A DNA stretch of 64,000 bases. Source: Candidatus Falkowbacteria bacterium (GTDB lineage Bacteria; Patescibacteriota; Patescibacteriia; Patescibacteriales; UBA12465). Under the pieces are notes generated by a model. That model did no database searches, was not told the DNA's origin, and saw nothing but the letters and a program-made list of their open reading frames with translations. Shown piece after piece: positions 28,227 through 44,495 of the stretch. The position numbers were made by a program, and so were the translations under genes. Within the stretch, counting starts at the first letter, position 1. Every line of letters begins with the position of its first letter. The stretch spans positions 289,188-353,187 of the forward strand of contig JBAXJX010000001.1 in NCBI GenBank assembly GCA_037137655.1, in the 5' to 3' direction.

Positions 28227-28227
28227 T

Positions 28228-28806: not shown

Positions 28807-28819
28807 TAAAAAATATAAC

Positions 28820-29785: not shown

Positions 29786-29844
29786 GATAAAAGTAGGCGT
29801 GAAATTATTTTATAATAAATATAAAGTATTAATTAAATAACATT

Positions 29845-31050
29845 ATGAATGAAGCAGAATTAATTGCTAAGCTAAAAAAACAAGAGTCGGCCATGCTAAA
29901 TGTAATGGATGATATTGAACTGGAAAAGAAGAAGGTGGAGGATTTGGCGGCTGATTTGGAAAAATTTAAATTGGCTGTGGCCAACGCAGCAGAACATATG
30001 GTTATTACCGATCCTGATGGTATTATTTTATACATGAATCATGCCGCTGAGAATATTACTGGTTATTCAATTGGAGAATCGCTTGGTAAGAAGGCCGGCT
30101 CTAAAGATTTGTGGGGCGGCTTAATGCCATTGGAATTTTATGTCACCATGTGGGATACTTTAAAAAAACAAAAAAAAGTTTTTGCCGGTGAGATAAAAAA
30201 TAGAAGAAAGAGTGGTGAATTATATGATGCTTATGCGATGGTGGCGCCTATTATTAAAAATGGTGCAGTTAGTTTCTTTATTGGAATTGAGCGTGATATT
30301 ACGGCGGAAAAAAATATTGATCGAGTTAAAACCGAATTCGTTTCATTGGCTTCACATCAATTACGCACTCCGATTGGAACCGCCAATTGGTATACCGAAA
30401 TGTTGTTAAACGGTGATGCTGGTGTCTTAAGCGATGCACAACGAGAGATGTTAGAGGAAGTTCATGCGGAGAATAAATTAATGATGGAGCTTGTAGAGTC
30501 ATTGTTAAATGTTTCACGGATGGATCTTGGTACTTTTGTGGTTGAGTCAAAACCGACTAATATGACGGAATTATGGCAATCGGTTGTTAAAGAGCAAGCT
30601 CAAACTTTAACACAGAAAAAACAAAATTTAGAACAACAAATTGCTTCAGATATTCCAGCGATCTCCGTTGATCCTAAGTTGTGGCGAATGGTATTTCAAA
30701 ATTTATTGTCCAATGCCATTAAATACACCCCGGAGAGTGGCGCGATTAAAGTATCTATGGAAATCGGTAAAGCTAAAACTAGTTTTAATGAAGTAGTGTT
30801 AGAACAAGATTCTTTGTGTTTTGCAATTAGTGATACTGGTTATGGCATTCCTAAAGAACAACAAGATAAAATATTCGGTAAATTATTCCGCGCCAACAAT
30901 GTTAAAGAGAAAGACATTGAAGGTACCGGTCTTGGTCTTTATATTGTAAAATCGGTTATTGAAACCTCGGGTGGTAGTATTAGCTTTGTATCAGTGATAA
31001 ATCAGGGAACATCATTTTATATAATTTTGCCCCTAGTGGCTAAAAAATAA
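29845..31050 (+). CDS. Cytoplasmic PAS-domain sensor histidine kinase
   Basis: 401 aa. Coiled coil plus PAS (VITDPDGIILYMNHAAENITGY), H-box SLASHQLRTPIGT, N-box QNLLSNAIKYTP, G boxes ISDTGYGIP and GTGLGLYIV. No TM segment. Confidence 0.9.
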   Translation: MNEAELIAKLKKQESAMLNVMDDIELEKKKVEDLAADLEKFKLAVANAAEHMVITDPDGIILYMNHAAENITGYSIGESLGKKAGSKDLWGGLMPLEFYVTMWDTLKKQKKVFAGEIKNRRKSGELYDAYAMVAPIIKNGAVSFFIGIERDITAEKNIDRVKTEFVSLASHQLRTPIGTANWYTEMLLNGDAGVLSDAQREMLEEVHAENKLMMELVESLLNVSRMDLGTFVVESKPTNMTELWQSVVKEQAQTLTQKKQNLEQQIASDIPAISVDPKLWRMVFQNLLSNAIKYTPESGAIKVSMEIGKAKTSFNEVVLEQDSLCFAISDTGYGIPKEQQDKIFGKLFRANNVKEKDIEGTGLGLYIVKSVIETSGGSISFVSVINQGTSFYIILPLVAKK

Positions 31051-31060
31051 ATTCATTATT

Positions 31061-31753
31061 ATGCCGCAAAAAAATGCCTGGGAAAGAGAATATCAACAAC
31101 AACTACTTGTTAGTAAAGATGAGCGACCACAAAACTTTTTAGTGCAATTTCTCAAATATCTAAAAAAAGATAAAAAATTAGCCATGACCGATTTGCAGGT
31201 TTTGGATTTGGGTTGTGGCACGGGGCGTAACACTAATTATTTAGCTGAGCGGGGAAATAATGTGGTGGGAATTGATATTGCCGCTAACGCTTTAAGGACT
31301 GGTGAAATGCGCGTTAAGAAATTGGAATTAGAGTCATCAGTTAACTATATTAATCAAAGCATTGGAGCGCCGTTACCATTCGCTGATAATTATTTTGATT
31401 TAATTTTGGATATCACTTCCTCTAATTCACTTAAAGAGTCGGAGCGGGAAATTTATTTAAAGGAATGTCATCGCGTTTTAAAACCAGGTGGCTTTATTAT
31501 TTTGCGCGCCTTATGCAAGGACGGTGATAAAAATGCCAAGAAGCTCTTAGAACTAAGCCCGGGAAAGGAATATGATACTTATTTTATGAAAGAGTTGGGT
31601 CTTGTTGAGCGGGTTTTCAGCGAGAAAGATTTACGGGATTTGTATGGGCGTTATTTTAATTTTGATAAATTAACTAAAGATATTGGCTATCCAAAAGTTG
31701 GTGGCCGAGTTTACACGCGAAGATATTGGTTGGCGATTTTAACGAAGAAATAA
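31061..31753 (+). CDS. Class I SAM-dependent methyltransferase
   Basis: 230 aa. Motif I VLDLGCGTGRN; post-I VVGIDIA. Confidence 0.85.
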   Translation: MPQKNAWEREYQQQLLVSKDERPQNFLVQFLKYLKKDKKLAMTDLQVLDLGCGTGRNTNYLAERGNNVVGIDIAANALRTGEMRVKKLELESSVNYINQSIGAPLPFADNYFDLILDITSSNSLKESEREIYLKECHRVLKPGGFIILRALCKDGDKNAKKLLELSPGKEYDTYFMKELGLVERVFSEKDLRDLYGRYFNFDKLTKDIGYPKVGGRVYTRRYWLAILTKK

Positions 31754-31754
31754 C

Positions 31755-32582
31755 ATGATAAAAAAAATCTTAATTATTGTTGCTGTGCTTTTGGGCTTAG
31801 CGGGTTTATCGATTTTAGTTTTAACACCAAAATCTGTTCCGGTTGGTAACAGTCTTAATATTGTTGATGTTAGACATGTTGATGTGCCAGTAGTTAAAAG
31901 CGAAATTAGTTTACCGCCAAAAACTCCGACGGCTGTGCCTGTTAAAGCACTGCCTATAGCAAGTAGTACAACCCCAAGTTCAACTCCACCATTCAAGAAG
32001 GATCTTATTAAATTAGATGTTCCATTTACAACTCAATCACCGTTTGCGCAGTGGTCAGATTTACGCCAGGAGAATGCCTGTGAGGAGTCTGCGGCTATTA
32101 TGGCGGTGTATTGGGCTAAAGGGAAAATATTTACGGCCCAAGAGGCGCGAGACATGATTGTGGCGATATCTGATTGGGAAAAGAAAAATTATGGTAGCTT
32201 TGAAGATACCTCCGCTAAAGATACGGTGGATAGAATTTTTAAGAAGTATTTTAATTATCAAAAAGTGGCAGTGGTTAATAATATAAAACTTGAGGATATA
32301 ATTACTGAACTGGAGAAGGGTAATTTAGTGATTACTCCAATGGATGGGCAAAAATTAGGCAATCCATTTTTTACACCGCCTGGACCAGTGACGCACATGT
32401 TGGTTATTATTGGTTATGATTATAAAACTAAAGAGTTTATTGTTAATGAATCTGGCACCAAAAGAGGGAAGGCTTATCGTTATGACCGGGATGTTTTATT
32501 TGCGGCAATTCGGGATTACCCAACTGGTAATCATGAGCCGATTGTGGGAATTAAAAAGAATATGATTGTAGTTAGAAAATAA
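31755..32582 (+). CDS. Membrane-anchored C39-like (Peptidase_C39_2-type) cysteine peptidase domain protein
   Basis: 275 aa. N-terminal TM, Pro/Thr-rich linker, LDVPFTTQSP...ENACEESAAIM (candidate Cys) and THMLVIIGYD (candidate His). Confidence 0.7.
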   Translation: MIKKILIIVAVLLGLAGLSILVLTPKSVPVGNSLNIVDVRHVDVPVVKSEISLPPKTPTAVPVKALPIASSTTPSSTPPFKKDLIKLDVPFTTQSPFAQWSDLRQENACEESAAIMAVYWAKGKIFTAQEARDMIVAISDWEKKNYGSFEDTSAKDTVDRIFKKYFNYQKVAVVNNIKLEDIITELEKGNLVITPMDGQKLGNPFFTPPGPVTHMLVIIGYDYKTKEFIVNESGTKRGKAYRYDRDVLFAAIRDYPTGNHEPIVGIKKNMIVVRK

Positions 32583-32589
32583 GGTGTAT

Positions 32590-32671
32590 ATTGACAAATA
32601 GCATTATTTATGATATAATAATTTACAGTTAAATAAATAGTAATCGAACATTAAAAATCATATAATCATGG
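32590..32671 (+). repeat. Duplicated promoter plus 48-nt leader, copy 1
   Basis: 66/82 ungapped identity with 33296-33377 (hand count), including TTGACA, the -10 and taatcgaacattaaaaat. Confidence 0.8.
32591..32619 (+). promoter_or_regulatory. Consensus sigma70 promoter TTGACA-N17-TATAAT
   Basis: ttgaca 32591-32596; tataat 32614-32619. Confidence 0.75.
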
Positions 32672-33240
32672 AAGTAAATGTAATTGGCAAAATTGTTCCA
32701 AGTGAATTATTTGCAAGCGCTCACGAAGACGAGGCTTTAGTTAATAGAAATGATCCTCGTAATAATTTTGTTCCGGTTGAGGATGTGGTTGGCAGTGATG
32801 AAAGCGATATCATTGAATATATTTCAACGCGTGAAAGACTTATGAATCGCCTTAAAAACAATACCAGAAATCGCGATCATAAAATAAATCGTAAAACCAG
32901 TTCAAATCTTGATTGCCAAATTATGGTAATGAGTAAAGATAGCGATGAAATTGGTGTTGAATGTCAACATTTTATTGGTGCAGCTTCAATTGTTAATGGT
33001 GAGGTTGTTTATTCAGAAAATATCGCCGTTGATATTAAAGAGGAACTTCGTGTTTACATGGCGCCAGAGAGAATTGGAATTAATAAATCTCATTGTAATG
33101 CAGGCAAACACTTAACCGATATAATTGGTTTAAAGCGTTTCTTTAAAAATTCTGACAAAGAAAACCTCAAGACAATGCCCATAGCCAAATTACAAAGATT
33201 ATCACGCGCTGAACTCCGTGAGTATCGTGGTAAATTCTAA
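32668..33240 (+). CDS. Hypothetical protein (paralog family with ORF 33374-33673)
   Basis: 190 aa. Has its own consensus promoter and terminator. Shares DIIEY and CxxFIGAAS blocks with the next ORF. Confidence 0.65.
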   Translation: MEVNVIGKIVPSELFASAHEDEALVNRNDPRNNFVPVEDVVGSDESDIIEYISTRERLMNRLKNNTRNRDHKINRKTSSNLDCQIMVMSKDSDEIGVECQHFIGAASIVNGEVVYSENIAVDIKEELRVYMAPERIGINKSHCNAGKHLTDIIGLKRFFKNSDKENLKTMPIAKLQRLSRAELREYRGKF

Positions 33241-33255
33241 AACAAAAAAATCGAT

Positions 33256-33286
33256 TAGACAGGCCTTAAAAACCTGTCTTTTTTTA
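33256..33286 (+). terminator. Rho-independent terminator
   Basis: agacagg ... cctgtct followed by tttttt. Confidence 0.75.
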
Positions 33287-33295
33287 TGATTCATC

Positions 33296-33377
33296 ATTGA
33301 CAACACGCTATCTTCATGATACAATTATTTACAGTTAATTGAATTCTAATCGAACATTAAAAATTATATAGTTATGG
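33296..33377 (+). repeat. Duplicated promoter plus 48-nt leader, copy 2
   Basis: See copy 1; offset of 706 bp. Confidence 0.8.
33297..33325 (+). promoter_or_regulatory. Sigma70 promoter TTGACA-N17-TACAAT
   Basis: ttgaca 33297-33302; tacaat 33320-33325. Confidence 0.75.
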
Positions 33378-33673
33378 TAGCAAAGGAAAGCGATCTTCCC
33401 GAGGAAGATGAAGTGATAATTGTTCAAGATTATCCAAATAAAAAAAAGGTTTCAGCTGAAGAAGTGGTGGATGATAGTATTGATATTATTGAGTACGTCG
33501 AAGAGGCATTACAAATAAAAAGACTAAGACGCCTCCGTATCGAAAACTTAAAATCAAGAGGATTGGTATTACCAGAAACGGTTGAAGCTGATTGTTTTAT
33601 TGGCGCCGCTTCAGTCTTTTCAGATTTTATCGTAGTTCCAAAATGGAATGCAATCTGTAATCTGGCATTATAA
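33374..33673 (+). CDS. Hypothetical protein, short/truncated paralog of ORF 32668-33240
   Basis: 99 aa. SAEEVVDDSIDIIEYV and ADCFIGAASVF align with the 190-aa paralog. It diverges and stops soon after the FIGAAS block, so it may be a decaying copy. Confidence 0.45.
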   Translation: MVAKESDLPEEDEVIIVQDYPNKKKVSAEEVVDDSIDIIEYVEEALQIKRLRRLRIENLKSRGLVLPETVEADCFIGAASVFSDFIVVPKWNAICNLAL

Positions 33674-33703
33674 TAATTTTCGTAAATCAAGTGTTAATCT
33701 AAA

Positions 33704-34069
33704 ATGGAAATAATGGAAAAGAAAATAATTGTTAATGGTAAAGAGTTGGAGTATCACGGTCAACCGCTACAAGCCTTTGTGTTTGATGGTGAAGCTTGGG
33801 GTGGTCGCAGTAATTTTATCGAAGAAGGTGTGTCCGGAAAAAACATTAGTTGTTTACGAGATACCTCTAATTGTTTTTGGTGGATAAAAAATTGGATTTT
33901 ATTGGAAGGTGATAAATACGGTTATGTTTTGGATTATTACAATCAAGTTGTGTATTATGACAAAATTGAAGCCCTTGATTACCTCCAAAAAGACTATTTT
34001 TTAGTTCATGGTTTAAATGATTATTTCGTGGAATTTATCCAAAAAGATTTTTTGGAGCCAGCTGCCTAA
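33704..34069 (+). CDS. Hypothetical protein
   Basis: 121 aa, aromatic-rich, no recognisable motif. Follows ORF 33374 with no terminator in between. Confidence 0.55.
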   Translation: MEIMEKKIIVNGKELEYHGQPLQAFVFDGEAWGGRSNFIEEGVSGKNISCLRDTSNCFWWIKNWILLEGDKYGYVLDYYNQVVYYDKIEALDYLQKDYFLVHGLNDYFVEFIQKDFLEPAA

Positions 34070-34087
34070 AAAACAGAAAAACAGTCC

Positions 34088-34125
34088 AAGAGTATCGCCA
34101 AATTACGGTGATACTCTTTTTATTT
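34088..34125 (+). terminator. Rho-independent terminator
   Basis: aagagtatcgcc / ggtgatactctt 12-bp stem (one G.U), followed by a T-run. Confidence 0.8.
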
Positions 34126-34134
34126 GCCAGCTTA

Positions 34135-34163
34135 TTGATTTTATTTTAGTTATGCGTTAGTAT
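34135..34163 (+). promoter_or_regulatory. Sigma70-type promoter TTGATT-N17-TAGTAT
   Basis: ttgatt 34135-34140; tagtat 34158-34163; precedes the small ORF at 34192. Confidence 0.55.
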
Positions 34164-34191
34164 GGATATTATTCATTATTAAACAATTTAT

Positions 34192-34320
34192 ATGGCCAAA
34201 AGAACTACTGGGGTTGGTAAACCTCACAAAACCCACTCTCATAAAACTGCTAAGCGTTTAGAGATCAAGAAACAAATGCTTGAAGCTAAAGCTGCTAAAA
34301 GAGGTAATAAAATCAAATAA
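34192..34320 (+). CDS. Small, very basic 42-aa protein (below the ORF-track cutoff)
   Basis: MAKRTTGVGKPHKTHSHKTAKRLEIKKQMLEAKAAKRGNKIK. Own promoter; ends 15 nt before the next gene and shares its terminator. Confidence 0.4.
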   Translation: MAKRTTGVGKPHKTHSHKTAKRLEIKKQMLEAKAAKRGNKIK

Positions 34321-34335
34321 AGTCCTCTTTATTTT

Positions 34336-34668
34336 ATGGATAACCTCAAAAATGTTTGCGCCGTTTGTCATCAACCAATTTTGGAGTCTTATTATTTTTG
34401 CCCAAACTGTGGAGCTAATTTAAGAGAGAAAACTGCACCAGTTTCGGTTATTATGCAAATCGGTCTTTATGCTTTAGCAGTTTTTGTGCCACCACTAGGT
34501 TTTGTGCCAGGTGTTAAGTATATGATGAAAAAAACGACACAAGCTAAGCGTGTTGGATTAATTACAGTTTTACTAACCACAATCTCAACCGTCCTAACAA
34601 TTTGGGCTATCTTTGCTTTTCTAAATAAATATTTAAGTGAAATAAGTGGTCTTGGTTTAGGTTTGTAG
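34336..34668 (+). CDS. Zinc-ribbon membrane protein
   Basis: 110 aa. CAVCHQP...FCPNCGA zinc ribbon, then two TM helices. Confidence 0.7.
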   Translation: MDNLKNVCAVCHQPILESYYFCPNCGANLREKTAPVSVIMQIGLYALAVFVPPLGFVPGVKYMMKKTTQAKRVGLITVLLTTISTVLTIWAIFAFLNKYLSEISGLGLGL

Positions 34669-34676
34669 TAAAATAC

Positions 34677-34712
34677 AAAAAAAACAACCTCAGAGATTGA
34701 GGTTGTTTTTTG
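34677..34712. terminator. Bidirectional terminator between convergent genes
   Basis: aacaacctc agagatt gaggttgtt flanked by an A-run and a T-run. Confidence 0.85.
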
Positions 34713-34728
34713 TTTGGTGTAGTTTTTA

Positions 34729-35136
34729 TTATTTAGTAGAAGTGGCGTTGGTAGCTGGAGTTGGTGTTGGTGCTACAACTTGGCTATTAGCTGGGATGTA
34801 GTTACGATTCATCATTTGGCGACCGCCGAAGTTTTTTTCAAAATTTCCTTCATTGTGATTATTTCTGGCACCCATGTGAAATCCGATTGAGAAGATGGCG
34901 ACAATGATAGCTATTTTTACTAAAATTTTTAAAGCACCACCGTGACAACAACATTTAGATTTCGCACTTGAACAACAATCTTTTTCACTTGAACAACATG
35001 ATTTTTCTTCAGAACAACAATCTTTTTCACTTGAACAACATGATTTTTCTTCAGAACAACAATCTTTTTCACTGCTCATTTCTTTGTCGTCATGTGAACA
35101 ACAAGTGTGTTCATTTTTGTCTTTTTGTTCTTCCAT
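34729..35136 (-). CDS. Cys-Cys heptad-repeat membrane protein (putative metal/thiol-binding)
   Basis: 135 aa. N-terminal cytoplasmic tract with seven vicinal-Cys clusters in (E/S)EK(D/S)CCS(E/S) heptads, one TM (ILVKIAIIVAIFSIGF), and a short Pro/Thr-rich tail. Confidence 0.75.
   Translation of the reverse strand: MEEQKDKNEHTCCSHDDKEMSSEKDCCSEEKSCCSSEKDCCSEEKSCCSSEKDCCSSAKSKCCCHGGALKILVKIAIIVAIFSIGFHMGARNNHNEGNFEKNFGGRQMMNRNYIPANSQVVAPTPTPATNATSTK
34965..35074 (-). repeat. In-frame 21/42-bp tandem repeat inside the Cys-rich gene
   Basis: The 42-bp unit cacttgaacaacatgatttttcttcagaacaacaatcttttt is repeated exactly twice (34986-35069) and preceded by a 21-bp half unit. Encodes the CC heptads. 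Confidence 0.9.
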
Positions 35137-35163
35137 ATCCTATTTTTGTTTAATTTGTAAGTA

Positions 35164-35178
35164 ATAACCAGTGGTTAT
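35164..35178. promoter_or_regulatory. Perfect 7-1-7 palindrome ATAACCAgTGGTTAT (candidate operator)
   Basis: Lies just downstream of the minus-strand extended -10 (tgatataat, plus-strand 35189-35197). A TGGTTAT half-site recurs at 35222-35228, next to the plus-strand -35. Confidence 0.45.
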
Positions 35179-35228
35179 CAATGTTGGAATTATATCATAT
35201 ATTTTTGATTTTGTCCATGATTGGTTAT

Positions 35229-35258
35229 TTGCCAAAAGGACCTTGAAAATGCTATAAT
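35229..35258 (+). promoter_or_regulatory. Promoter TTGCCA-N18-TGcTATAAT (DUF1003 gene)
   Basis: ttgcca 35229-35234; tataat 35253-35258, preceded by tgc. Confidence 0.6.
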
Positions 35259-35288
35259 TAATCAGTAATTTACTAAAAAATTTAAAAT

Positions 35289-35705
35289 ATGGAAAATAAA
35301 GAGGTGGTGCAAAAGACTTGGCACGAAAAACATGTTGCGGCCTCAACCGTTGGTCAAAAAATAGCCGATAATACGGCGAATTTTATGGGTTCATGGAAGT
35401 TTATTATTGGGCAAACTGCCTTTGTGATTTTATGGATGACGTTTAATTGTATTGCCTTCATTAATCACTGGGACGTTTATCCATTTATTTTGCTTAATTT
35501 GATTTTCTCAACCCAAGCAGCTTATGCGGCACCAATTATTATGATGGCGCAAAATCGGCAAAATGAGCGTGATCGTTTTCAAGCTAGCGAGGATTATCAC
35601 ACTAATGTTGTGGCCAAGAAAGATATTGAAAATTTACAAAGAGCTTTGGCTCGAATTGAAGAGGATAAGTTAGATAAGATTATTGAAATGTTGAAAACGA
35701 AATAA
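35289..35705 (+). CDS. DUF1003 family membrane protein
   Basis: 138 aa. FMGSWKFIIGQT...YPFILLNLIFSTQAAYAAPIIMMAQNRQNERDR is the DUF1003 signature. Confidence 0.8.
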   Translation: MENKEVVQKTWHEKHVAASTVGQKIADNTANFMGSWKFIIGQTAFVILWMTFNCIAFINHWDVYPFILLNLIFSTQAAYAAPIIMMAQNRQNERDRFQASEDYHTNVVAKKDIENLQRALARIEEDKLDKIIEMLKTK

Positions 35706-35729
35706 GTTTATAAATTAATTTTTTATTAT

Positions 35730-36872
35730 ATGTCTGATATATACGAAGAGTCTGTGGCTTGGCATCGTGCCCAGCACGGAAAAATGGAGCTTAAAAGTAA
35801 AGCGCCCTTGCTAACTAAAAAAGATTTATCATTAGCTTATACGCCAGGTGTGGCTGAAGTGTGTCGCGTAATTGCCAAGGATGAGGCGGAGGCTAAAAAT
35901 CTAACATTAAAACATAACACTGTGGCAGTAATTAGTGACGGTAGCGCTGTTTTGGGTTTAGGTAATTTGGGTGCAGCGGCAGCTATACCGGTTATGGAAG
36001 GGAAATGCGTATTATTTAAGGAGTTTGCGGGAGTTGACGCTTTTCCAATTTGTCTTGATACGCAAGATGAAGAAGAAATCATTAAAACTATAAAATATTT
36101 AGCCCCGGTTTTCGGTGGCATTAACTTGGAAGATATTTCTGCACCACGTTGTTTTAATATTGAAGCGCGCCTAAAAAAAGAATTGGATATTCCAGTGATG
36201 CACGATGATCAGCACGGGACCGCTACTGTGGTGTTGGCTGGACTTATTAATGCTTTGCGTTTGCGCGAGTCAGATAAAAAAGATGTTCGCGTTGTGGTTA
36301 ATGGGGCTGGAGCAGCCGGAGTGGCTATAACAAAATTGTTATTAGAATTCGGCTTTGTAAATATAATTGTTTGTGATAGTAAGGGTGTAATATTTTCTGG
36401 TAGGGATGATTTAAATAGTTCTAAGACAGAGCTGGCCAAATTAACTAATAAAAATAAAACAACTGGTGATTTAATTGCAGCCCTTTCTGGTGCTGATGTT
36501 TTTATTGGTGTTAGTACCGCTGAAGTTCTTAAACCAGAGATGATAAAGCTAATGGCTAAAGATCCAATTATTTTTGCGCTAGCCAATCCAACGCCGGAAG
36601 TTATGCCGGATGTGGCAATGGCAGCCGGCGCTTTAGTGGTGGCTACTGGTCGGAGTGATTATCCAAATCAAATTAATAATGTTTTGGTTTTTCCAGGAGT
36701 ATTTCGGGGCGCTTTGGACAATAATGTTAAAGAAATCACTGATGCAATGTTGATTAGAGCTGCGGAAAATTTAGCTAGTTTAATTGAAGAGCCAAGCGCT
36801 GATAATATTTTACCGGATGTCTTTGATAAACGCGTAGCTAAAGTAGTGGCTAGTGCGATTTGTGAAATATAA
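35730..36872 (+). CDS. NAD(P)-dependent malic enzyme (short MaeB-type, no PTA domain)
   Basis: 380 aa. LAYTPGVAEVC, VISDGSAVLGLGNLG, PVMEGKCVLFKEFAGVDAFPI, FGGINLEDISAPRCF, NGAGAAG. Confidence 0.92.
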   Translation: MSDIYEESVAWHRAQHGKMELKSKAPLLTKKDLSLAYTPGVAEVCRVIAKDEAEAKNLTLKHNTVAVISDGSAVLGLGNLGAAAAIPVMEGKCVLFKEFAGVDAFPICLDTQDEEEIIKTIKYLAPVFGGINLEDISAPRCFNIEARLKKELDIPVMHDDQHGTATVVLAGLINALRLRESDKKDVRVVVNGAGAAGVAITKLLLEFGFVNIIVCDSKGVIFSGRDDLNSSKTELAKLTNKNKTTGDLIAALSGADVFIGVSTAEVLKPEMIKLMAKDPIIFALANPTPEVMPDVAMAAGALVVATGRSDYPNQINNVLVFPGVFRGALDNNVKEITDAMLIRAAENLASLIEEPSADNILPDVFDKRVAKVVASAICEI

Positions 36873-36896
36873 TTAATATAATTAATTTAAAAAAAT

Positions 36897-37331
36897 ATGA
36901 AAAATAATCTAAAAAAAATAATTCTTTCCTTATTTGTGATTGGGGCATTTATTTTTTATGCTATCTATCGCCAAGGAAATTTTACCCCTCAGACTAATGA
37001 TAAAAATACTGCTAACAATAATACTCCTAGCAGTAATACGGGGAATAAAACTAATGTGATTTATAAAGATGGTGAATATACTGGGGCTTCGTTTGACGCC
37101 CTGTACGGCGTGCTTCAAGTTAAGGCTGTTGTTCAAGGTGGCAAATTGACCGATGTGATTTTTTTAAGCGGCACACAAGAAGGTGGGCGACCACTGAGAG
37201 GACTTGATACGTTAAAGAGTGAAGCTATTACTGCTCAAAGCGCTAATGTGGATACAGTTTCTGGCGCGACCAATTCTAGCGGAGCTTTTGTTAGTTCTTT
37301 AGCTTCTGCCCTAGCTCAAGCTACAAAATAA
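36897..37331 (+). CDS. Membrane-anchored FMN-binding (FMN_bind) domain protein
   Basis: 144 aa. N-terminal TM (Lys-rich N-terminus inside), Asn/Thr linker, FMN_bind domain with flavinylation-type motif VDTVSGATNSS. Confidence 0.8.
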   Translation: MKNNLKKIILSLFVIGAFIFYAIYRQGNFTPQTNDKNTANNNTPSSNTGNKTNVIYKDGEYTGASFDALYGVLQVKAVVQGGKLTDVIFLSGTQEGGRPLRGLDTLKSEAITAQSANVDTVSGATNSSGAFVSSLASALAQATK

Positions 37332-37338
37332 ATTAATT

Positions 37339-38085
37339 ATGAAACTTAGTAAAATAGTGATGGGCACGGTAGTAACGATTGATATTGTTGATCCCCAGGT
37401 TTTAGCAAGTGATATTGAGAAAGTTTTTAATTACTTGGAGCAGGTTGAGGAAAAATTTAGCGTGTTTAAAGTAAGTAGTGAGATTTCTAGAATAAATCGC
37501 GGTGAATTGAACCACGAAAATTATAGCGCGGAGATGAAAGAAATTTTTTCTTTGGCCGCTAAGACCAAAGTTGAAACTAATGGCTACTTTGATATTGTTA
37601 CTGATAAAGGTCAATTTAATCCTTCGGGCATTGTTAAAGGTTGGGCAATTTCAAAAGCCGCTGATTTACTAAAAGTTGCTGGCTTTAAAAACTTTTACGT
37701 CGAAATTGGTGGTGATATTGAAGTCGCAGGGAAGAATTCATCAAATAATTTGTGGCGCGTGGGTATTAGAAATCCGTTTGACCTGGAAAAGAATGTTAAA
37801 ATTTTAGAACTGGACAATTGCGGTATTGCGACCTCAGGTATTTATTTACGTGGTCAACATATTTATAATCCACACAATCCAAATGAAAAATTTTCCGATA
37901 TTGTGAGCTTAACCGTTGTAGCTAAAAATGCTTATGAGGCCGATAGATTTGCCACTGCCGCGTTTGCGATGGGACGAGAGGGAATTGTTTGGTTGGAAAA
38001 TTTCCCCGAACTAGAGGCTTACATGATTGATAAAAATGGCCAGGCGACTTTTACAAGTGGTTTTGAAAAATATATAACAAAATAA
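37339..38085 (+). CDS. apbE: FAD:protein FMN transferase (ApbE family), no signal peptide
   Basis: 248 aa. MGTVVTIDI, VKGWAISKAADLL, VEIGGDIEVAG, WRVGIRNP, IATSGIYLRG, HIYNP, EADRFATAAFAMG. The conserved MGT block starts at residue 8. Confidence 0.88.
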   Translation: MKLSKIVMGTVVTIDIVDPQVLASDIEKVFNYLEQVEEKFSVFKVSSEISRINRGELNHENYSAEMKEIFSLAAKTKVETNGYFDIVTDKGQFNPSGIVKGWAISKAADLLKVAGFKNFYVEIGGDIEVAGKNSSNNLWRVGIRNPFDLEKNVKILELDNCGIATSGIYLRGQHIYNPHNPNEKFSDIVSLTVVAKNAYEADRFATAAFAMGREGIVWLENFPELEAYMIDKNGQATFTSGFEKYITK

Positions 38086-38089
38086 TTTT

Positions 38090-39607
38090 ATGAAAAAAAT
38101 TGATTATTATCTTAATCGAGTAACGATGTATCGTTTACTTATTTATTCTCTAAGCTTCTTTTTATTGGTAGCTATTGGTTTAAGTTTTTTTAAACTTTTT
38201 CCATATAAACCATTAGATATTATAATGTCGGCCGGTTTTATCATGGCGCTTTGTTTTATTGTTAATGGTGTTTTTGCTTACGCGTTTGAAGCTCCGAGCA
38301 ATGATGAGTCAGTGGTTATTACGGCTTTAATTTTGGCCTTGATAATTACACCACAATATTCCAGTGATTATGTAGTTTTAGCTGTTTGGGCTTCGGTTTT
38401 AGCGATGGCTTCTAAATATATTTTAGCTATTGGTAAAAAACATATTTTTAATCCCGCAGCAATTGCGGTGGTCTTAACGGCTATATTTCTAAATCAATCA
38501 GCCAGTTGGTGGATTGCTAATTTGTATACCGCTCCAATTATTTTTATCGGTGGATTTTTAATTGTGCGCAAGATAAAAAGAGCTGACTTGCTTTATGCTT
38601 TTTTTGGCACGGCATTGTTAACAGCTTTAATCTTTGGAATAGGTAAGGGTACTAATCCGATATTGGTTTTAAGTATGACGATAATTTATTCATCGTTAAT
38701 GTTTTTTGCCTTTACCATGCTAACTGAACCGATGACTACACCACCAACTAGAAATGGTCGAATCGCTTATGGTGCTTTGGCGGGATTTCTATTTGTGCCA
38801 GCGGTACATTTTGGTTCACTTTATTTCACACCAGAATTAGCTTTGATAACTGCTAATATCTTTTCTTATCTTATTAGTCCAAAGCATAAACTAATTTTAG
38901 AATTTAAAGAGAAAGTTTTGGTGGCTAATAATTCTTATGATTTTATCTTTACTCCTAGCAAAAAAATAAATTTTAAGCCAGGGCAATACATGGAGTGTAC
39001 TTTGAAACACGAAGACTCTGATAGTCGGGGTGTGCGCCGTTTTTTTACGGTTGCCTCATCACCCACCGAGGACACAGTTCATTTTGGTATAAAATTTTAT
39101 GATAAGCCTAGTAGTTTTAAACAAACTTTATTAAGTTTAAAGTCTGGTGATACGATGGTGGCTGCTCAATTAGCAGGTGATTTTTATATGCCAGCAGATA
39201 AAAATAAAAAGTTGGTCTTTATCGCTGGTGGTATCGGAGTAACACCATTTCGCAGTATGATTAAGAGTTTATTGGATACTGGCGAGGCGCGCGATATTGT
39301 TTTCTTTTATGCTAATACTGAAGAGGCAGATATTGCCTATAAAGACATTTTTGATGCCGCTAATAGTAATTTAGGTATAAAAACAATCTATTCTTTATCT
39401 AAAACTGAGGCGATTCGGGCTGATTGGCCTGGAATTAAAGGTTTGATAACTAAAGAGCTGATTTTAGCCGAAGTGCCGGATTATAAGGAGCGAATGTTCT
39501 ATATTTCTGGTCCACATGCCATGGTGGCTGCTTATAGCGGTATTTTACAGGAATTAGGGGTGACTCGTGACCAGATTAAGGTTGACTATTTTCCCGGTTT
39601 CGCGTAA
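38090..39607 (+). CDS. Fusion protein: NqrB/RnfD-like polytopic membrane domain + ferredoxin-NAD(P)+ reductase-like FAD/NAD(P)H domain
   Basis: 505 aa. Membrane half has KHIFNPAA and MLTEPMTTPPT (RnfD/NqrB-type motifs). C-terminal half has RRFFTVASSP (RxYS-type FAD site) and GGIGVTPFRSM (NAD(P)H site). Confidence 0.8.
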   Translation: MKKIDYYLNRVTMYRLLIYSLSFFLLVAIGLSFFKLFPYKPLDIIMSAGFIMALCFIVNGVFAYAFEAPSNDESVVITALILALIITPQYSSDYVVLAVWASVLAMASKYILAIGKKHIFNPAAIAVVLTAIFLNQSASWWIANLYTAPIIFIGGFLIVRKIKRADLLYAFFGTALLTALIFGIGKGTNPILVLSMTIIYSSLMFFAFTMLTEPMTTPPTRNGRIAYGALAGFLFVPAVHFGSLYFTPELALITANIFSYLISPKHKLILEFKEKVLVANNSYDFIFTPSKKINFKPGQYMECTLKHEDSDSRGVRRFFTVASSPTEDTVHFGIKFYDKPSSFKQTLLSLKSGDTMVAAQLAGDFYMPADKNKKLVFIAGGIGVTPFRSMIKSLLDTGEARDIVFFYANTEEADIAYKDIFDAANSNLGIKTIYSLSKTEAIRADWPGIKGLITKELILAEVPDYKERMFYISGPHAMVAAYSGILQELGVTRDQIKVDYFPGFA

Positions 39608-39642
39608 TCTGACTAGGTGTTAAGAGTTTTTTAATTAATGTC

Positions 39643-40215
39643 ATGAAAAAAGAAATTACAATTTCCGGGCGCAAAATCGAATACCGTCTCGAGCGCCGGC
39701 GCGGCATTAAAAATTTATGTCTAACGATTGGTTCTGATGGTTGTTTAGTGGCTAGTCGCCCGTGGTATGTAGGCCAAAAAACGATCGAGCTATTTATCAT
39801 GGATAAGTCATCTTGGATTATAGAAAAGATGGATGAATTTAAGGAAAAGTATCGGAAAGCCAAGTCATTTGTTGATAGTCGGGAGGCTTATTTGCTATAT
39901 AAGAAACAAGCCGAAAGAATTATTGCTAAAAAAGTTAAAGAATTTAATGAATTTTATCAATTTGATTTCGCTAAAATTGTTATTAGAAATCAAAAGACGC
40001 GCTGGGGAAGTTGCTCGGCCCGTGGTATATTAAATTTTAATTATAAATTAATTTTTTTACCGCACCATATAATTGACTATGTCGTAGTACACGAATTGTG
40101 TCATTTAAAAGAAATGAATCATTCAATTCGGTTTTGGAATCTAGTAACCAAAAAGGTTCCGGATTATAAAGCGATTAGAGTTTTACTACATAAAAAAGGA
40201 TTAGATTTAAGATAA
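39643..40215 (+). CDS. M48-family metallopeptidase (YgjP/DUF45-like)
   Basis: 190 aa. RWGSCS, VVHELCHLKEMNHSIRFW (HExxH plus distal H). Confidence 0.8.
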   Translation: MKKEITISGRKIEYRLERRRGIKNLCLTIGSDGCLVASRPWYVGQKTIELFIMDKSSWIIEKMDEFKEKYRKAKSFVDSREAYLLYKKQAERIIAKKVKEFNEFYQFDFAKIVIRNQKTRWGSCSARGILNFNYKLIFLPHHIIDYVVVHELCHLKEMNHSIRFWNLVTKKVPDYKAIRVLLHKKGLDLR

Positions 40216-40240
40216 AATAATATAAGAGTTTTTAAAATAA

Positions 40241-40501
40241 ATGAATAAAAATAATTACGTCGCTAAATTAAAACGAACTATCACTTCAATTTTACCGGTA
40301 AGTAAGAAGCGTCGAGGTTCCTGCAATAATTGTGGTAAGTGTTGTTCTTTGCCTAATCCATGTTGGTTTTTACGAACCAGTGCGGACGGTAAAACTCATT
40401 GTGCGATTTATAAAATTAGACCACTTAATTGTCGTAAATATCCCCGCACCGAAAGTGAATTATTAACTGCGGATAGCTGTGGTTATCATTTTGAAAAATA
40501 A
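40241..40501 (+). CDS. YkgJ-family cysteine-cluster protein
   Basis: 86 aa. CNNCGKCC...CAIYKIRPLNCRKYP pattern. Confidence 0.75.
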   Translation: MNKNNYVAKLKRTITSILPVSKKRRGSCNNCGKCCSLPNPCWFLRTSADGKTHCAIYKIRPLNCRKYPRTESELLTADSCGYHFEK

Positions 40502-40521
40502 AAAATTAATTTAAAAATAAT

Positions 40522-41979
40522 ATGGCCGAAGAAGTAGTATTGAGATTTGATGATGTGAGTTTTGAATATGTGCACAAAAAACCGATTTTAGATGAGGCGT
40601 CTTTTAGTGTGCGTAAGGGTGCTAAGGTAACTTTAATGGGACAAAATGGTGCTGGTAAAAGTACAATTTTTGGCTTAATTAAGGGTGATTTAAAACCAAA
40701 AAGTGGTCGCCTATCAATAACTGGCGGTGCAAGTATTGGCACAGCTAGCCAAACCGTGGCCAGGGCAGATTTTCCACTAACAGTCTTAGAATATTTTTCT
40801 AAAGCCTTTGAAATTGTTCCGGGAAATATAAAAAGTCGTATCGCCAAGGTGTTGGATGCGGTTAATTTTGACATTCCACTAGATCGCATTGTCGGTGATC
40901 TTTCTGGCGGGCAACAAGCGCGTTTACTTTTGGCTTATTCCTTAATTCAAGATCCTGATATTTTATTATTAGACGAACCAACAAATAATTTGGATAAAGA
41001 CGGAATTGATCATTTGATTACTTTTTTGATTATGTATGAAAAAACTGTAATCGTAATTTCCCATGATGCTGATTTCTTAAATTGTTTTACAGAAGGCGTG
41101 GTTTATTTAGATGTTTTTACTCATAAAACTGAACTTTATGTCGGCGATTATTATTCCGTAGTTGAAGAAATTGCCTCTCGCGTGGAAAGAGAAATCATGA
41201 AAAACGCTCAACTGGAAAAGAAGATTATTGACCGTAAAGAAAAAGTTAACTTCTTCGCCAATAAAGGTGGTAAGATGCGTAAATTAGCCCAAAAACTAAA
41301 AGAGGAAACAGAAGAATTGGAAGAAAATAAAGTTGATGTTCGTCGGGAAGACAAAACTATTCGAAATTTTGAAATTCCAGTTCAAGATGAACTCGTTGGC
41401 GAAATTGTCATTTTAAAAAAAGTACGAGTGATAAAAAATCATGAACCGATACTTAAAGATATTGATAAAGTTTTACGTAAAAAAGACCGCTTGTTAATTA
41501 CTGGACCAAATGGTGTTGGTAAGAGTACTTTACTGCGATCATTGGTGTCAGAGGCGCAAGATGGCGCTACGATTCAACCAAAGATTAGAGTTGGTTATTA
41601 CAGTCAAGATTTTTCGGCGCTTGATTTTGATGAAAAAGTTTTTGATTCTTTAATGGGTATCCGCTCTGAAGGTATCGATGAACAAATGATGCGTGCAATT
41701 GCGGCTGGTTTCTTAATTACTGGTGATCTAATGGAAAACAAGATTGGTTCATTATCAGAGGGACAAAAAGGTTTGTTGTCTTTCGCGCGTTTGGTTCTAA
41801 TGAAACCAGGTTTATTGATTTTAGATGAGCCAACTAATCATATTAACTTCCGTCATATTCCGGTTATTGCTGAAGCTATTAATAAGTTTGACGGACCAAT
41901 CATTATGGTTAGTCATATGCCGGAGTTTGTGAAAGAAATAAAGTTTAACGATGAACTCGATCTAGGTAAATTATTATAA
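40522..41979 (+). CDS. ABC-F family ATPase (tandem ABC domains, no TM)
   Basis: 485 aa. GQNGAGKST/LSGGQQ/LLLDEPTN, then GPNGVGKST/LSEGQK/LILDEPTN, separated by a charged ~60-aa linker. Confidence 0.9.
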   Translation: MAEEVVLRFDDVSFEYVHKKPILDEASFSVRKGAKVTLMGQNGAGKSTIFGLIKGDLKPKSGRLSITGGASIGTASQTVARADFPLTVLEYFSKAFEIVPGNIKSRIAKVLDAVNFDIPLDRIVGDLSGGQQARLLLAYSLIQDPDILLLDEPTNNLDKDGIDHLITFLIMYEKTVIVISHDADFLNCFTEGVVYLDVFTHKTELYVGDYYSVVEEIASRVEREIMKNAQLEKKIIDRKEKVNFFANKGGKMRKLAQKLKEETEELEENKVDVRREDKTIRNFEIPVQDELVGEIVILKKVRVIKNHEPILKDIDKVLRKKDRLLITGPNGVGKSTLLRSLVSEAQDGATIQPKIRVGYYSQDFSALDFDEKVFDSLMGIRSEGIDEQMMRAIAAGFLITGDLMENKIGSLSEGQKGLLSFARLVLMKPGLLILDEPTNHINFRHIPVIAEAINKFDGPIIMVSHMPEFVKEIKFNDELDLGKLL

Positions 41980-41996
41980 TTTAGAATCTACTCTTT

Positions 41997-43232
41997 ATGA
42001 GCATATATGATGTCGTGGTTGTGGGCGGTGGCGCCTCAGGATTAATCGCGGCGGGGCGAGCGTCAGAATTGGGCGCGCGCGTTTTGTTGCTGGAAAAAAA
42101 TAAACAGCTGGGCGTTAAACTTTTAATGACTGGTGGCGGTCGCTGTAATTTTACCAATCAATCATCACCTCGCGTGCTAGCCGAGGCCTTTGGCCAAAAT
42201 GGTAAATTTTTGTTATCCGGTTTAAACCGTTTTGGCTCCGAAGAATTAATTGATTTTTTTAGTGTCCGCGGTTTAAAATACAAAATTGAAGATCGTGGTC
42301 GAGTTTTCCCGGAAGGCAATAAGGCCCAAGAAATTTTAAAATTATTAGTTGATTACATTAAGGATGGTCATGGTGAAATAAAAACTGATTCTAAAGTTAC
42401 AAAAATTATTAAAACTGGTAATAAAATTTCCAAATTAATTTTGGCTGATGGTTCTGAAATTATAGCTAAGAAATTTATTATTGCGACTGGCGGAAAATCA
42501 TATCCACTCTCCGGCTCTAGTGGTGAAGCTTATTCTTGGTTAGCTGAACTTGGCCATAAAATTATAAAACCACGCGCCGCCCTTAGCCCAATTATTATTA
42601 GTGAGAACATTAAAGATTTGGAGGGTTTAAGTTTGTCTGGTGCCGAATTAACATTGGTGCACAATGGTCAAAAAATTGGCCACAGCTTTGGGGATTTTAT
42701 TTTTACTAGTCGATCTTTAAGCGGTCCAGCAGTTTTAAGTTTGAGTCGTGATTCTGTTCGGGCCAGTGTAAATAAGGCTGAGGTGGTAATAGATTTTTGC
42801 CCGGATCTAAGTGCGGAAGACTTGGAAGATAAAATTATAGCTCTGGTGGCGGAAAATAAACAAGTTGATATTAAAAATATTTTGGCTCGAATTTTTCCGA
42901 AACGTTTAAGTAATTTCATTCTACTTAATAACAGAATTAATCCAGACAAAAAAGCCAATGGTTTAACTAAAATTGAGCGTCAGCTTTTAGTAATGGCTTT
43001 TAAAAAATATTCATTGACCACTTTTGGGGTGGGTGATTTTACTGAAGCGATGATTACTTTAGGTGGCGTTGATTTAAAAGAAGTTGATCCGAAAACGATG
43101 GCCTCTAAACTTTATTCTAATTTATATTTAGCCGGGGAAGTTTTGGATTTAGATGGACCAACTGGCGGTTATAATTTGCAAGCAGCTTGGACGACCGGCT
43201 ATTTGGCTGGGGAAGCAGCGGCAAGTGATTAA
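41997..43232 (+). CDS. HI0933/YhiN-like NAD(P)/FAD-dependent flavoprotein
   Basis: 411 aa. DVVVVGGGASGLIAAGRASELG, TGGGRCNFTN, ATGGKSYP; C-terminal GEVLDLDGPTGGYNLQ. Confidence 0.88.
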   Translation: MSIYDVVVVGGGASGLIAAGRASELGARVLLLEKNKQLGVKLLMTGGGRCNFTNQSSPRVLAEAFGQNGKFLLSGLNRFGSEELIDFFSVRGLKYKIEDRGRVFPEGNKAQEILKLLVDYIKDGHGEIKTDSKVTKIIKTGNKISKLILADGSEIIAKKFIIATGGKSYPLSGSSGEAYSWLAELGHKIIKPRAALSPIIISENIKDLEGLSLSGAELTLVHNGQKIGHSFGDFIFTSRSLSGPAVLSLSRDSVRASVNKAEVVIDFCPDLSAEDLEDKIIALVAENKQVDIKNILARIFPKRLSNFILLNNRINPDKKANGLTKIERQLLVMAFKKYSLTTFGVGDFTEAMITLGGVDLKEVDPKTMASKLYSNLYLAGEVLDLDGPTGGYNLQAAWTTGYLAGEAAASD

Positions 43233-43255
43233 AATAGGGCATGGAAGCTTAATTA

Positions 43256-43284
43256 TTGATAATATCGGCTTATTCGTGTATAAT
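43256..43284 (+). promoter_or_regulatory. Sigma70 promoter TTGATA-N17-TATAAT (tyrS)
   Basis: ttgata 43256-43261; tataat 43279-43284. No T-box between the promoter and the ATG. Confidence 0.7.
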
Positions 43285-43313
43285 TTTGGTGTTATCAATT
43301 AATTTTTAAATTT

Positions 43314-44495
43314 ATGAATATTAATACTAATCCGGAGAAAATTGAAGAATTATTATCTCGTGGTGTTGAGGAAGTTATTTCTAAAGATGATTTACGTAAG
43401 AAATTGCTAACCGGTAAACAATTGCGCGTGAAGTTAGGTATTGATCCAACTAGCCCGAATATTCATTTGGGTCGCAGTGTGCCGCTTTTAAAATTGCGTG
43501 ATTTCCAAGATCTTGGTCATCAAATTGTTTTTATTATTGGTGACTTTACCGGTACAATTGGTGATACTTCCGATAAGAACGCGGAACGACCAATGTTAGA
43601 TGATGCTACGATTAAAAGTAATATTAAAAATTATGTCGCGCAAGCCGCTAAAGTAATTGATATTGATAAATGTGAAGTTCATTATAACAATGACTGGCTT
43701 GGCGCTTTAACTTATAAAGAAATTTGTAAACAAGCTAATGCTTTTTCGATTAACGAATTTATTTCTCGTGATAATATTGCGCGCCGCTTAGAGTCTGGTT
43801 CTCGGGTGTCGTTACGTGAAGTTTTATATCCTTTAATGCAGGGCTACGACTCCGTACAGTTAAAGGCGGATGTTGAAATCGGTGGGACAGATCAACGCTT
43901 TAATTTGTTGGCTGGGCGTGAGTTGCAACGCTTGTATGGTCAAGAGCCGCAAAATGTCATTACTAATCCAATTATCGAAGGTTTGGATGGTCGTAAAATG
44001 AGTTCTAGCTGGGGTAATACTGTAAATTTATTCGACACCCCACGTGAGATGTTTGGTAAAATAATGTCACTCCAAGATGAATTTATTGTTAAATATTTTA
44101 TTTTAGTAACACGAATTGATTTGGGTTTAGTAGCTGAATATAAAAAAGAATTAGATGGCGGCGCTAATCCGCGTGATTTAAAAGTTAAATTAGCCAAAGA
44201 AATTGTTAAAATGTATCACTCCGAAGCCGAGGCTGAGGCTGAAGAACTTAATTTTATTAAAACATTTTCTAAAAAAGAAATTCCCGATGAGATGCCGGAA
44301 ATTACTCCGGGTGCTTATGATTTAATCTCAGTTTTAATGGAGGCAAAATTGGCCACTTCTAAATCGGATGCTCGCCGTGTCATTGAACAGGGTGGGGTGA
44401 AGATCAATCAGGAAGTTATTAAAGATATTAATTTTATTATTCCTGGTGGCGCCGTGCTGCAAAAGGGAAAGATTAATTTCTTAAAAGTTCTATAA
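43314..44495 (+). CDS. tyrS: Tyrosyl-tRNA synthetase
   Basis: 393 aa. Class I HIGH-type PNIHLGR, KMSSS loop, C-terminal S4 domain (SKSDARRVIEQGGVKIN). Confidence 0.92.
   Translation: MNINTNPEKIEELLSRGVEEVISKDDLRKKLLTGKQLRVKLGIDPTSPNIHLGRSVPLLKLRDFQDLGHQIVFIIGDFTGTIGDTSDKNAERPMLDDATIKSNIKNYVAQAAKVIDIDKCEVHYNNDWLGALTYKEICKQANAFSINEFISRDNIARRLESGSRVSLREVLYPLMQGYDSVQLKADVEIGGTDQRFNLLAGRELQRLYGQEPQNVITNPIIEGLDGRKMSSSWGNTVNLFDTPREMFGKIMSLQDEFIVKYFILVTRIDLGLVAEYKKELDGGANPRDLKVKLAKEIVKMYHSEAEAEAEELNFIKTFSKKEIPDEMPEITPGAYDLISVLMEAKLATSKSDARRVIEQGGVKINQEVIKDINFIIPGGAVLQKGKINFLKVL

Follow-up and report, generated by a model that had tools for sequence, protein, structure and literature searches.

As defined by Meheust et al. 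(2021, eLife; PMC8238504), an NQR/RNF-like system is a flavinylation gene cluster with a gene for a PF03116::PF00175 fusion protein. That survey was filtered by signal peptides, one per cluster being sufficient for inclusion, and it recorded 127 clusters of this class, mainly in Actinobacteria and the candidate phyla radiation (CPR). Huang et al. (2024, mSystems; PMC11334425) modelled the pair from Ktedonobacter racemifer with AlphaFold-multimer, which placed the partner protein on the face opposite the NAD-binding domain. The transmembrane (TM) subunit lacks the flavinylated Thr of NqrB and RnfD, and the covalent FMN of the partner was suggested to sample the non-covalent flavin site of the TM subunit (PMC11334425). 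The class has already been credited with unidirectional electron flow from NAD(P)H to extracytosolic FMN (PMC8238504; PMC11334425). Here, a locus from Candidatus Falkowbacteria bacterium is compared with these systems. It lies in a stretch of 64,000 nucleotides (GenBank assembly GCA_037137655.1, contig JBAXJX010000001.1, positions 289,188 to 353,187), the whole of which is called the window below. Its core consists of three genes, coding for an FMN_bind protein, an ApbE and an RnfD-like::FNR fusion, and is probably a member of the NQR/RNF-like class: a two-subunit NAD(P)H:extracytosolic-acceptor oxidoreductase with a dedicated flavin transferase. What deserves attention is the pairing, throughout the family, of an apparently cytoplasmic ApbE with an apparently exported substrate.

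In the Rnf (PDB 9eri, 8ahx, 7zc6) and Na+-NQR (PDB 7xk3, 8a1x) complexes, RnfD and NqrB hold a riboflavin near the cytoplasm and a covalent FMN near the periplasm, about 8 Å apart, and RnfG and NqrC are periplasmic FMN proteins with a single TM helix (PMC12174285). The Falkowbacteria module has the RnfD fold in common with Rnf, its TEP.TTP block aligning with ATDPVTSP of RnfD. It also has the layout of RnfG, in which one N-terminal TM helix is followed by an FMN domain flavinylated near the C-terminus. Unlike Rnf, it is without RnfA/E, RnfB, RnfC, Fe-S clusters and the semicircular electron path, and NAD(P)H would enter through the fused FNR domain instead of RnfC. Similarly, its FNR half resembles the FAD/NADH domain of NqrF, its membrane half is a homologue of NqrB, its partner resembles NqrC and maturation would again depend on ApbE, but NqrA/D/E are missing, as is the 2Fe-2S domain on the FNR half.

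The flavin-based extracellular electron transfer system of Listeria (Ndh2, PplA, FmnB) follows the same logic, from cytoplasmic NADH through the membrane to an ApbE-flavinylated surface FMN_bind protein and on to an external acceptor, and both organisms have a monoderm-type envelope. In Listeria, however, electrons pass through a quinone, the ApbE (FmnB) is an exported lipoprotein and an ECF transporter acts as a dedicated FAD exporter, whereas the window module has no quinone step, no evident FAD exporter and an ApbE without an export signal. Signal-less cytoplasmic ApbEs are also found in Klebsiella pneumoniae, where the enzyme matures fumarate reductase, and in trypanosomatid fusions of ApbE to fumarate reductase. 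The substrates in those cases are cytoplasmic, whereas in the window and its relatives the substrate carries a predicted signal-anchor, signal peptide or lipobox.

The three-gene module and its relatives

The module and the gene directly upstream of it are encoded on the + strand as follows (window positions):

35730..36872, + strand: NAD(P)-malic enzyme, 380 amino acids (Pfam malic and Malic_M); upstream neighbour, not a part of the conserved module
36897..37331, + strand: FMN_bind subunit (RnfG/NqrC-like), 144 amino acids (PF04205, E 5.8e-7, 30.5 bits)
37251..37271, + strand: flavinylation motif DTVSGAT, residues 119-125, with Thr125 as the presumptive FMN-phosphoester site
37339..38085, + strand: compact ApbE (FAD:protein FMN transferase), 248 amino acids (PF02424, E 2.4e-42, 145.7 bits)
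38090..39607, + strand: RnfD-like::FNR fusion, 505 amino acids (NQR2_RnfD_RnfE, NAD_binding_1 and a weak FAD_binding_6)
38090..38884, + strand: RnfD/NqrB-like polytopic membrane domain, residues ~1-265 (PF03116, E 6.5e-15, 55.7 bits)
38438-38461, + strand: KHIFNPAA block of the membrane domain
38717-38749, + strand: MLTEPMTTPPT block of the membrane domain
38885..39607, + strand: FNR/NqrF-like FAD and NAD(P)H domain, residues ~266-505 (NAD_binding_1, PF00175, E 3e-15, 57.2 bits)
39035-39064, + strand: RRFFTVASSP of the FNR domain
39227-39250, + strand: GGIGVTPF of the FNR domain

The curated Pfam cut-offs are 22 bits for PF04205, 25.6 for PF02424, 27.7 for PF03116 and 22 for PF00175. An original prediction, made from the letters of the window, had described four closely spaced + strand genes with gaps of 4-24 nucleotides (nt) and no terminator between them. 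The open reading frames (ORFs), the gaps read from the sequence (24, 7 and 4 nt) and a scan of the interval, in which no terminator-like site was found between the four genes, all agree with this description. The motifs quoted in it (VDTVSGATNSS, KHIFNPAA, MLTEPMTTPPT, RRFFTVASSP and GGIGVTPFRSM) were likewise found in the translated ORFs.

The fusion protein was examined by profile searches and by AlphaFold2 single-chain models, of the full chain and of residues 1-272 alone, which were compared with the PDB by Foldseek. The model of the entire fusion (pLDDT 88.9, pTM 0.81) returned only FNR-type matches among the top 50. When the membrane half was modelled alone (pLDDT 89.1), the only significant fold matches were RnfD (TM 0.69-0.71; from A. 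woodii, A. vinelandii and C. tetanomorphum) and NqrB (TM 0.51-0.58), so that it is structurally nearer RnfD than NqrB. Urea and ammonium channels, which are distant relatives of RnfD and NqrB (PMC12174285), ranked next without significance. NCBIfam assigned the N-terminal half to RnfD, RsxD and NqrB, and the C-terminal half to flavohemoprotein reductase, NAD(P)H-flavin reductase and NqrF. Foldseek matched the C-terminal half to the FAD domain of NqrF (E ~1e-15), flavohemoglobin, FNR and the NADPH oxidase NOX of S. pneumoniae. The predicted assignment of the membrane half to the RnfD/NqrB family is thus borne out by the PF03116 score and the fold matches, and that of the C-terminal half to FNR-like FAD/NAD(P)H domains by Pfam, NCBIfam and Foldseek. 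The RRFFTVASSP and GGIGVTPF motifs were invariant in 66 homologues.

In the sequence alignment with A. vinelandii RnfD, residues 72-143 of the fusion correspond to RnfD 75-145 and residues 150-260 to RnfD 221-331, which leaves about 75 residues of RnfD (146-220 of 8ahx_D) without a counterpart in the fusion. This segment presumably carries the flavinylated Thr of RnfD. The strict motif [ST]G[AS][TS], taken as the mark of a flavinylation site, was absent from the membrane halves of the window protein and of all 74 full-length orthologues searched, and the lack of an SGAT site noticed earlier in the RnfD-like half therefore extends to its relatives.

Relatives were surveyed by scanning one genome per species. 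This gave 432 tblastn-confirmed candidates, of which the best 80 loci were examined with our own ORF calls and iterated profiles. Besides many CPR lineages, these 80 loci represent Ktedonobacteria and other Chloroflexota, Mesorhizobium, Kaistia, Microbacteriaceae, Arthrobacter and Spirochaetota. The order FMN_bind, ApbE, fusion was kept on one strand in 64 of the 80, with genes usually overlapping or less than 10 nt apart, and these 64 loci span CPR, Chloroflexota, Alphaproteobacteria, Actinomycetota and Spirochaetota. The synteny expected of the three core genes is therefore present in relatives. Of the other 16 loci, five run into a contig end, two are rearranged and nine have a fusion without an adjacent ApbE. 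No fusion of FMN_bind to ApbE or of ApbE to the RnfD-like protein was seen among the 80 loci or among the best 120 database matches for the fusion protein or ApbE. Other Rnf or Nqr subunits were found neither among the flanking genes in the window nor as recurrent neighbours in the 80 loci, and the window module gave no sign of ion pumping or of a quinone site.

The architecture differs in nothing from that of the published class, sharing with it the PF03116 N-terminal/PF00175 C-terminal fusion, the adjacent FMN_bind and ApbE genes, the absence of a flavinylated Thr from the TM subunit and the occurrence in CPR. The reading of the locus as a stripped-down Nqr/Rnf surrogate was thus right for the three-gene core, and it is an independent rediscovery of a known, purely bioinformatic class. 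By itself the module adds little, being one more CPR member of a class that has been catalogued twice from genomes. The distribution may be wider than published, since the 432 candidates, judged by their best 80, include Alphaproteobacteria, Chloroflexota and Spirochaetota. New beyond the published surveys are the lack of a recognisable signal in the in-cluster ApbE across the family and two co-varying subtypes of ApbE and flavinylation motif.

Several relatives depart from the common arrangement. Neither ApbE nor FMN_bind was found within 7 kb of the fusion in L016, L019, L042, L054, L059, L060 and L067. In L014 and L022, the latter with two copies, FMN_bind is present without an adjacent ApbE. 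The partner of such fusions might be flavin-free or encoded in trans. In L082, a relative with 62% identity, a 204-amino-acid gene directly upstream of ApbE has no Pfam match on record and would be the FMN_bind partner by position. Two genes upstream of ApbE in the same locus, positions 190-1668 encode a 492-amino-acid protein with weak Flavodoxin_2 and FMN_red matches.

Predicted compartments of ApbE and its partner

The conserved MGT block of the window ApbE begins at residue 8, and only 7 residues precede it. Because the stop-to-stop frame opens just 8 codons before the ATG, the choice of start codon cannot account for the missing signal peptide. The NCBI annotation starts the protein at M8, the M of MGT, giving 241 amino acids. 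In 66 ApbE orthologues about 7-10 residues precede the conserved MG[MT]/IGT strand, and only 5-25 codons separate the FMN_bind stop from this motif. Export signals were called heuristically from hydropathy, charge and lipobox; for ApbE, an uncharged stretch of at least 15 residues with a mean Kyte-Doolittle value of at least 1.5 was required, and the longest possible ORF was considered. By this measure none of 68 orthologues has a signal-like N-terminus. The longest uncharged stretch in these N-termini has a median of 9 residues and is beta-strand 1 itself.

Other ways in which a signal might have been missed were considered and rejected. A hidden N-terminal extension overlapping the FMN_bind gene is impossible in the window, where the frame is closed, and the apparent extensions in high-GC relatives are over-extended ORFs without a hydrophobic stretch. 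A programmed frameshift fusing FMN_bind to ApbE was rejected on the variation of spacing and relative frame between loci.

The enzyme otherwise looks like an active ApbE, judging from conserved residues. The best PDB match was V. cholerae ApbE (6nxi, 7.9e-19), and the window MGT aligns with about residue 15 of this crystallised, signal-less protein. The catalytic His is kept in GQHIYNP (equivalent to H257; compare 6nxi with the H257G mutant 6nxj), as are the ATSG block and the D...T Mg2+ motif (EADRFAT). The best 120 database homologues of ApbE are all single-domain proteins of 238-281 amino acids.

The FMN_bind protein has the opposite character. In the window it begins with MKNNLKK and a 16-residue h-region, followed by an Asn/Thr/Pro-rich linker and then the FMN-binding domain. 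The basic n-region and h-region form a signal-anchor, with 3 K/R before and 2 after it; SignalP, the program used in the published survey, might or might not call such an uncleaved anchor a signal peptide. DTVSGAT ends about 19 residues before the C-terminus. An FMN_bind orthologue was found in 68 of the 80 related loci, and an N-terminal h-region of at least 15 residues, as signal-anchor or signal peptide, in 68 of 70 partners. K/R are more numerous on the N-terminal flank in 48 partners, equal in 19 and fewer in 3, and the net charge across the anchors favours an N-in orientation in 59 vs 5. Lipoboxes occur in 9 partners (all 7 from actinobacteria and 2 others), and the spirochaetal partners have cleavable-looking signal peptides. 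The flavinylation motif lies within the last 30 residues in 70 of 70; in a 16-column motif alignment, 11-15 residues, mostly 12-14, remain to the C-terminus in all partners. Export by twin-arginine translocation (Tat) as a general solution was rejected, Arg-Arg being present in the n-region of only about 4 of the 70.

The mismatch between a signal-less ApbE and an exported substrate, first noticed as a topological puzzle in the window, thus recurs in its relatives (0 of 68 ApbEs with a signal, 68 of 70 partners with an N-terminal export signal), and by these predictions the pairing is family-wide. It runs counter to what has been recorded for ApbE. Cytosolic ApbEs have been recorded only for cytosolic targets, and the characterised ApbEs whose substrates are exported are all exported themselves (review, PMC12052999). 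A signal-less ApbE of the NQR/RNF-like class is mentioned neither by Meheust et al. (PMC8238504) nor by Huang et al. (PMC11334425), the latter of whom nowhere use the term 'signal peptide', and the open-access papers searched yielded no discussion of the mismatch.

From these observations we infer, tentatively and at somewhat less than even odds, that in the whole family ApbE flavinylates the C-terminal motif in the cytoplasm with cytoplasmic FAD, and that the FMN-bearing chain is then exported by Sec, or by Tat in a few lineages with Arg-Arg. Flavinylation before export would be feasible because a tag of 7 residues is accepted by ApbE, which works best when the tag is terminal (PMC12052999), because FAD is present in the cytoplasm, and because the motif lies close to the end of the chain that is translocated last. 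Three points weigh against this order of events. Cytoplasmic flavinylation preceding export was not found in the open-access literature, in which no ApbE substrate offers a precedent, and a cytosolic Salmonella ApbE did not complement an apbE mutant (PMC12052999). Furthermore, the ApbE search covered 64 kb of the genome, so that a second, exported ApbE might be encoded elsewhere.

The last point enters the best-surviving alternative, which is nonetheless unlikely. ApbE might be exported non-classically, either with its MKxTR n-region and 9-residue ILMGMPITV strand serving as a weak uncleaved signal or by piggy-back; or the in-cluster ApbE might have another cytoplasmic task (flavin loading of the membrane domain, or FAD pyrophosphatase activity) while a second, exported ApbE flavinylates the partner. 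The N-terminus does combine a basic region with a short, moderately hydrophobic stretch, the precedent of the characterised exported ApbEs speaks for it, and a few partners (L064, L075, L078) have Arg-Arg-containing, Tat-like n-regions. However, the hydrophobic stretch aligns with beta-strand 1 of the mature fold, has charged neighbours and in most cases includes a Pro; none of the 68 proteins has even a minimal h-region as defined above, and most partners are without Arg-Arg. As for a second enzyme, CPR genomes of about 1 Mb rarely hold paralogous accessory enzymes, and the pairing of subtypes described next points to the in-cluster ApbE acting on the partner.

ApbE occurs in two subtypes, MG[MT] (~248 amino acids) and IGT (~290 amino acids), and the partner motif in two, VD[IV][IV]SGA[TS] and [SD][KR]V[SAG]G[SA]SL. 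In nearly all loci having both genes, MG[MT] ApbE pairs with SGA[TS] partners and IGT with G[SA]SL. Such covariation is the pattern that a dedicated enzyme-substrate pair might be expected to leave, and co-inheritance in an operon would give the same. The IGT subtype was seen in L033, L043, L046, L049-L052, L055, L056, L063, L066 and L070-L078; it occurs in Saccharibacteria, Uhrbacteria and Actinomycetota. In its partner motif Ser, not Thr, would be modified, in a context unlike the canonical DxxSGAT.

How extracytosolic flavoproteins acquire their flavin, and how exported ApbEs are supplied with FAD, is an acknowledged open point in the field. Flavinylation before export, if true, would remove the need for FAD export and would fit minimal genomes. 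The compact three-gene system, present in the culturable Mesorhizobium, Dictyobacter and Agreia, is well suited to testing it.

Proposed source and path of electrons

The original prediction tied the module to the malic enzyme upstream, as a possible source of NAD(P)H. That gene is well identified (PF00390, 108.7 bits; PF03949, 97.3 bits), its catalytic part falling in the NADP-dependent malic enzyme subfamily of NCBIfam (E 3.7e-111). A functional partnership, in which malate oxidation would be coupled to an extracellular electron sink, is nevertheless improbable. The 24-nt gap and the lack of a terminator before FMN_bind are in its favour, as is L081, an 81%-identical relative in which the whole local synteny is kept (malic enzyme, FMN_bind, ApbE, fusion, YgjP, ABC-F, HI0933). 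Among the 80 loci, however, a malic enzyme lies within 7 kb only in L001, from another Falkowbacteria, where it stands downstream of the fusion; this adjacency on the other side of the module is mildly suggestive. None was found beside the module in the 62%- and 58%-identical relatives. In addition, gaps of up to 35 nt in the window join unrelated genes as well, and NAD(P)H is a diffusible pool for which adjacency is unnecessary. Co-transcription of the malic enzyme with the module is plausible but does not count as evidence of functional coupling; this part of the prediction was not upheld.

Within the module, the homologies suggest the following path. The FAD of the cytoplasmic FNR/NqrF-like domain would oxidise NAD(P)H and donate the electrons to a flavin that, by homology to RnfD/NqrB, would be held non-covalently near the cytoplasmic side of the RnfD-like domain. 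They would then cross to an outward-facing flavin pocket. RnfD and NqrB fill this pocket with FMN bound to a loop Thr; the loop is missing here, and the pocket would be served in trans by FMN phosphoester-linked to Thr125 of the membrane-anchored, exported FMN_bind subunit. This subunit would hand the electrons to an external acceptor. Most likely, the in-cluster ApbE, residing in the cytoplasm where FAD is available, would install the FMN before translocation of the partner. An outlet of this kind could plausibly re-oxidise nucleotides in a CPR cell without a respiratory chain.

This scheme has its own difficulties. No experimental work on the NQR/RNF-like class was found in the open-access literature, and the mechanism rests on homology and, for the flavin pockets, the distance from FNR to membrane and partner docking, on the model of Huang et al. 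(PMC11334425). Moreover, at the 9 loci where the fusion has no adjacent ApbE, 7 of which also lack an adjacent FMN_bind, the full set of components is not found together.

That the FMN_bind domain is instead cytoplasmic, on an N-out/C-in anchor, which would make the module an inward-facing redox device and reconcile substrate and enzyme as in K. pneumoniae fumarate reductase, is very improbable: the modest charge bias of the anchors in CPR versions (that of the window included) leaves room for it, but the lipoboxes, the cleavable-looking spirochaetal signals and the N-in bias of the partners, the periplasmic location of RnfG/NqrC domains and of the covalent-FMN pocket of RnfD/NqrB (PMC12174285), and the position of the partner opposite the NAD-binding domain in the published model (PMC11334425) all speak for an outward-facing domain. 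The FMN_bind domain is thus predicted outside, the membrane domain belongs with RnfD/NqrB and the genes are syntenic, which leaves the three-gene core as it was first described.

Gene neighbourhood

Upstream of the malic enzyme lie two further features:

35229..35258, + strand: sigma-70-like promoter match, TTGCCA-18-TATAAT with TG (11/12 match, best of the region)
35289..35705, + strand: DUF1003 membrane protein (PF06210, 5.7e-37), the first gene past the best promoter-like site and a local neighbour only

The promoter-like site is possibly the start of a transcript running through the DUF1003 gene and the module; it is a consensus match only, and promoter-like sites overall are no commoner than in shuffled sequence. 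The only terminator-like matches on the + strand of the interval lie within the fusion ORF and have weak stems of 5-6 bp; the scan gave 9 sites vs 5.2 +/- 2.1 expected from shuffles. DUF1003 was found in none of the 80 loci by profile search, nor in L081.

From 25865 to 44495 (~25.8-44.5 kb) nearly all genes of the window run in the + direction and lie 1-85 nt apart. The GC skew is positive over the whole 64 kb, and the string is a long, co-directional, leading-strand array of the sort typical of small CPR genomes. The flanking genes include DUF1003, the malic enzyme, a YgjP-like gene, a CxxCxxCC protein, ABC-F, an HI0933-like oxidoreductase and others. Even the YgjP-like, ABC-F and HI0933-like genes, which are clearly unrelated, are joined by gaps of no more than 35 nt. 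Because short gaps are the norm across the string, operon boundaries cannot be read from spacing here, and tight spacing therefore says little about functional coupling.

Other genes recur beside the module in relatives from other phyla. An OmpR-type response regulator was found near it in 17 loci and a histidine kinase in 22. In Spirochaetota (L064, L065, L069) the order is response regulator, histidine kinase, FMN_bind, ApbE, fusion on one strand; such genes also occur in Mesorhizobium and relatives (L026, L028, L031, L032, L037), the kinase abutting the 3' end of the module in Mesorhizobium. MacB/FtsX permeases are near the module in 17 loci, HlyD-type adaptors in 11 and CopA-type P-type ATPases in 7, with an overlap of CopA stop and FMN_bind start in L050. 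The loci with recurrent regulator, exporter or CopA flanks also include L017. Together with the association with VIT1 reported by Meheust et al. (PMC8238504), these neighbours point loosely to a regulated role in the envelope or in metal reduction.

Two further observations concern small genes upstream of the module in the window. On the - strand, 34729-35136 encodes a Cys-rich protein of 135 amino acids without a Pfam match, in which CCSSEKDCCSEEKS repeats and a CCCH block are combined with a single TM helix and a tail rich in Pro and Thr. Its gene contains 2.5 perfect copies of a 42-bp tandem repeat at 34970-35073. In the nearest relative, a homologue with 44% identity and fewer repeats has the same location and divergent orientation (L081:3161-3520, - strand). 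The protein may be a membrane-anchored metal-binding protein. On the + strand, the neighbouring ORFs at 32668-33240 and 33374-33673 share D-x-IDIIEY and FIGAAS[IV] segments and look like paralogous or partly duplicated small proteins.

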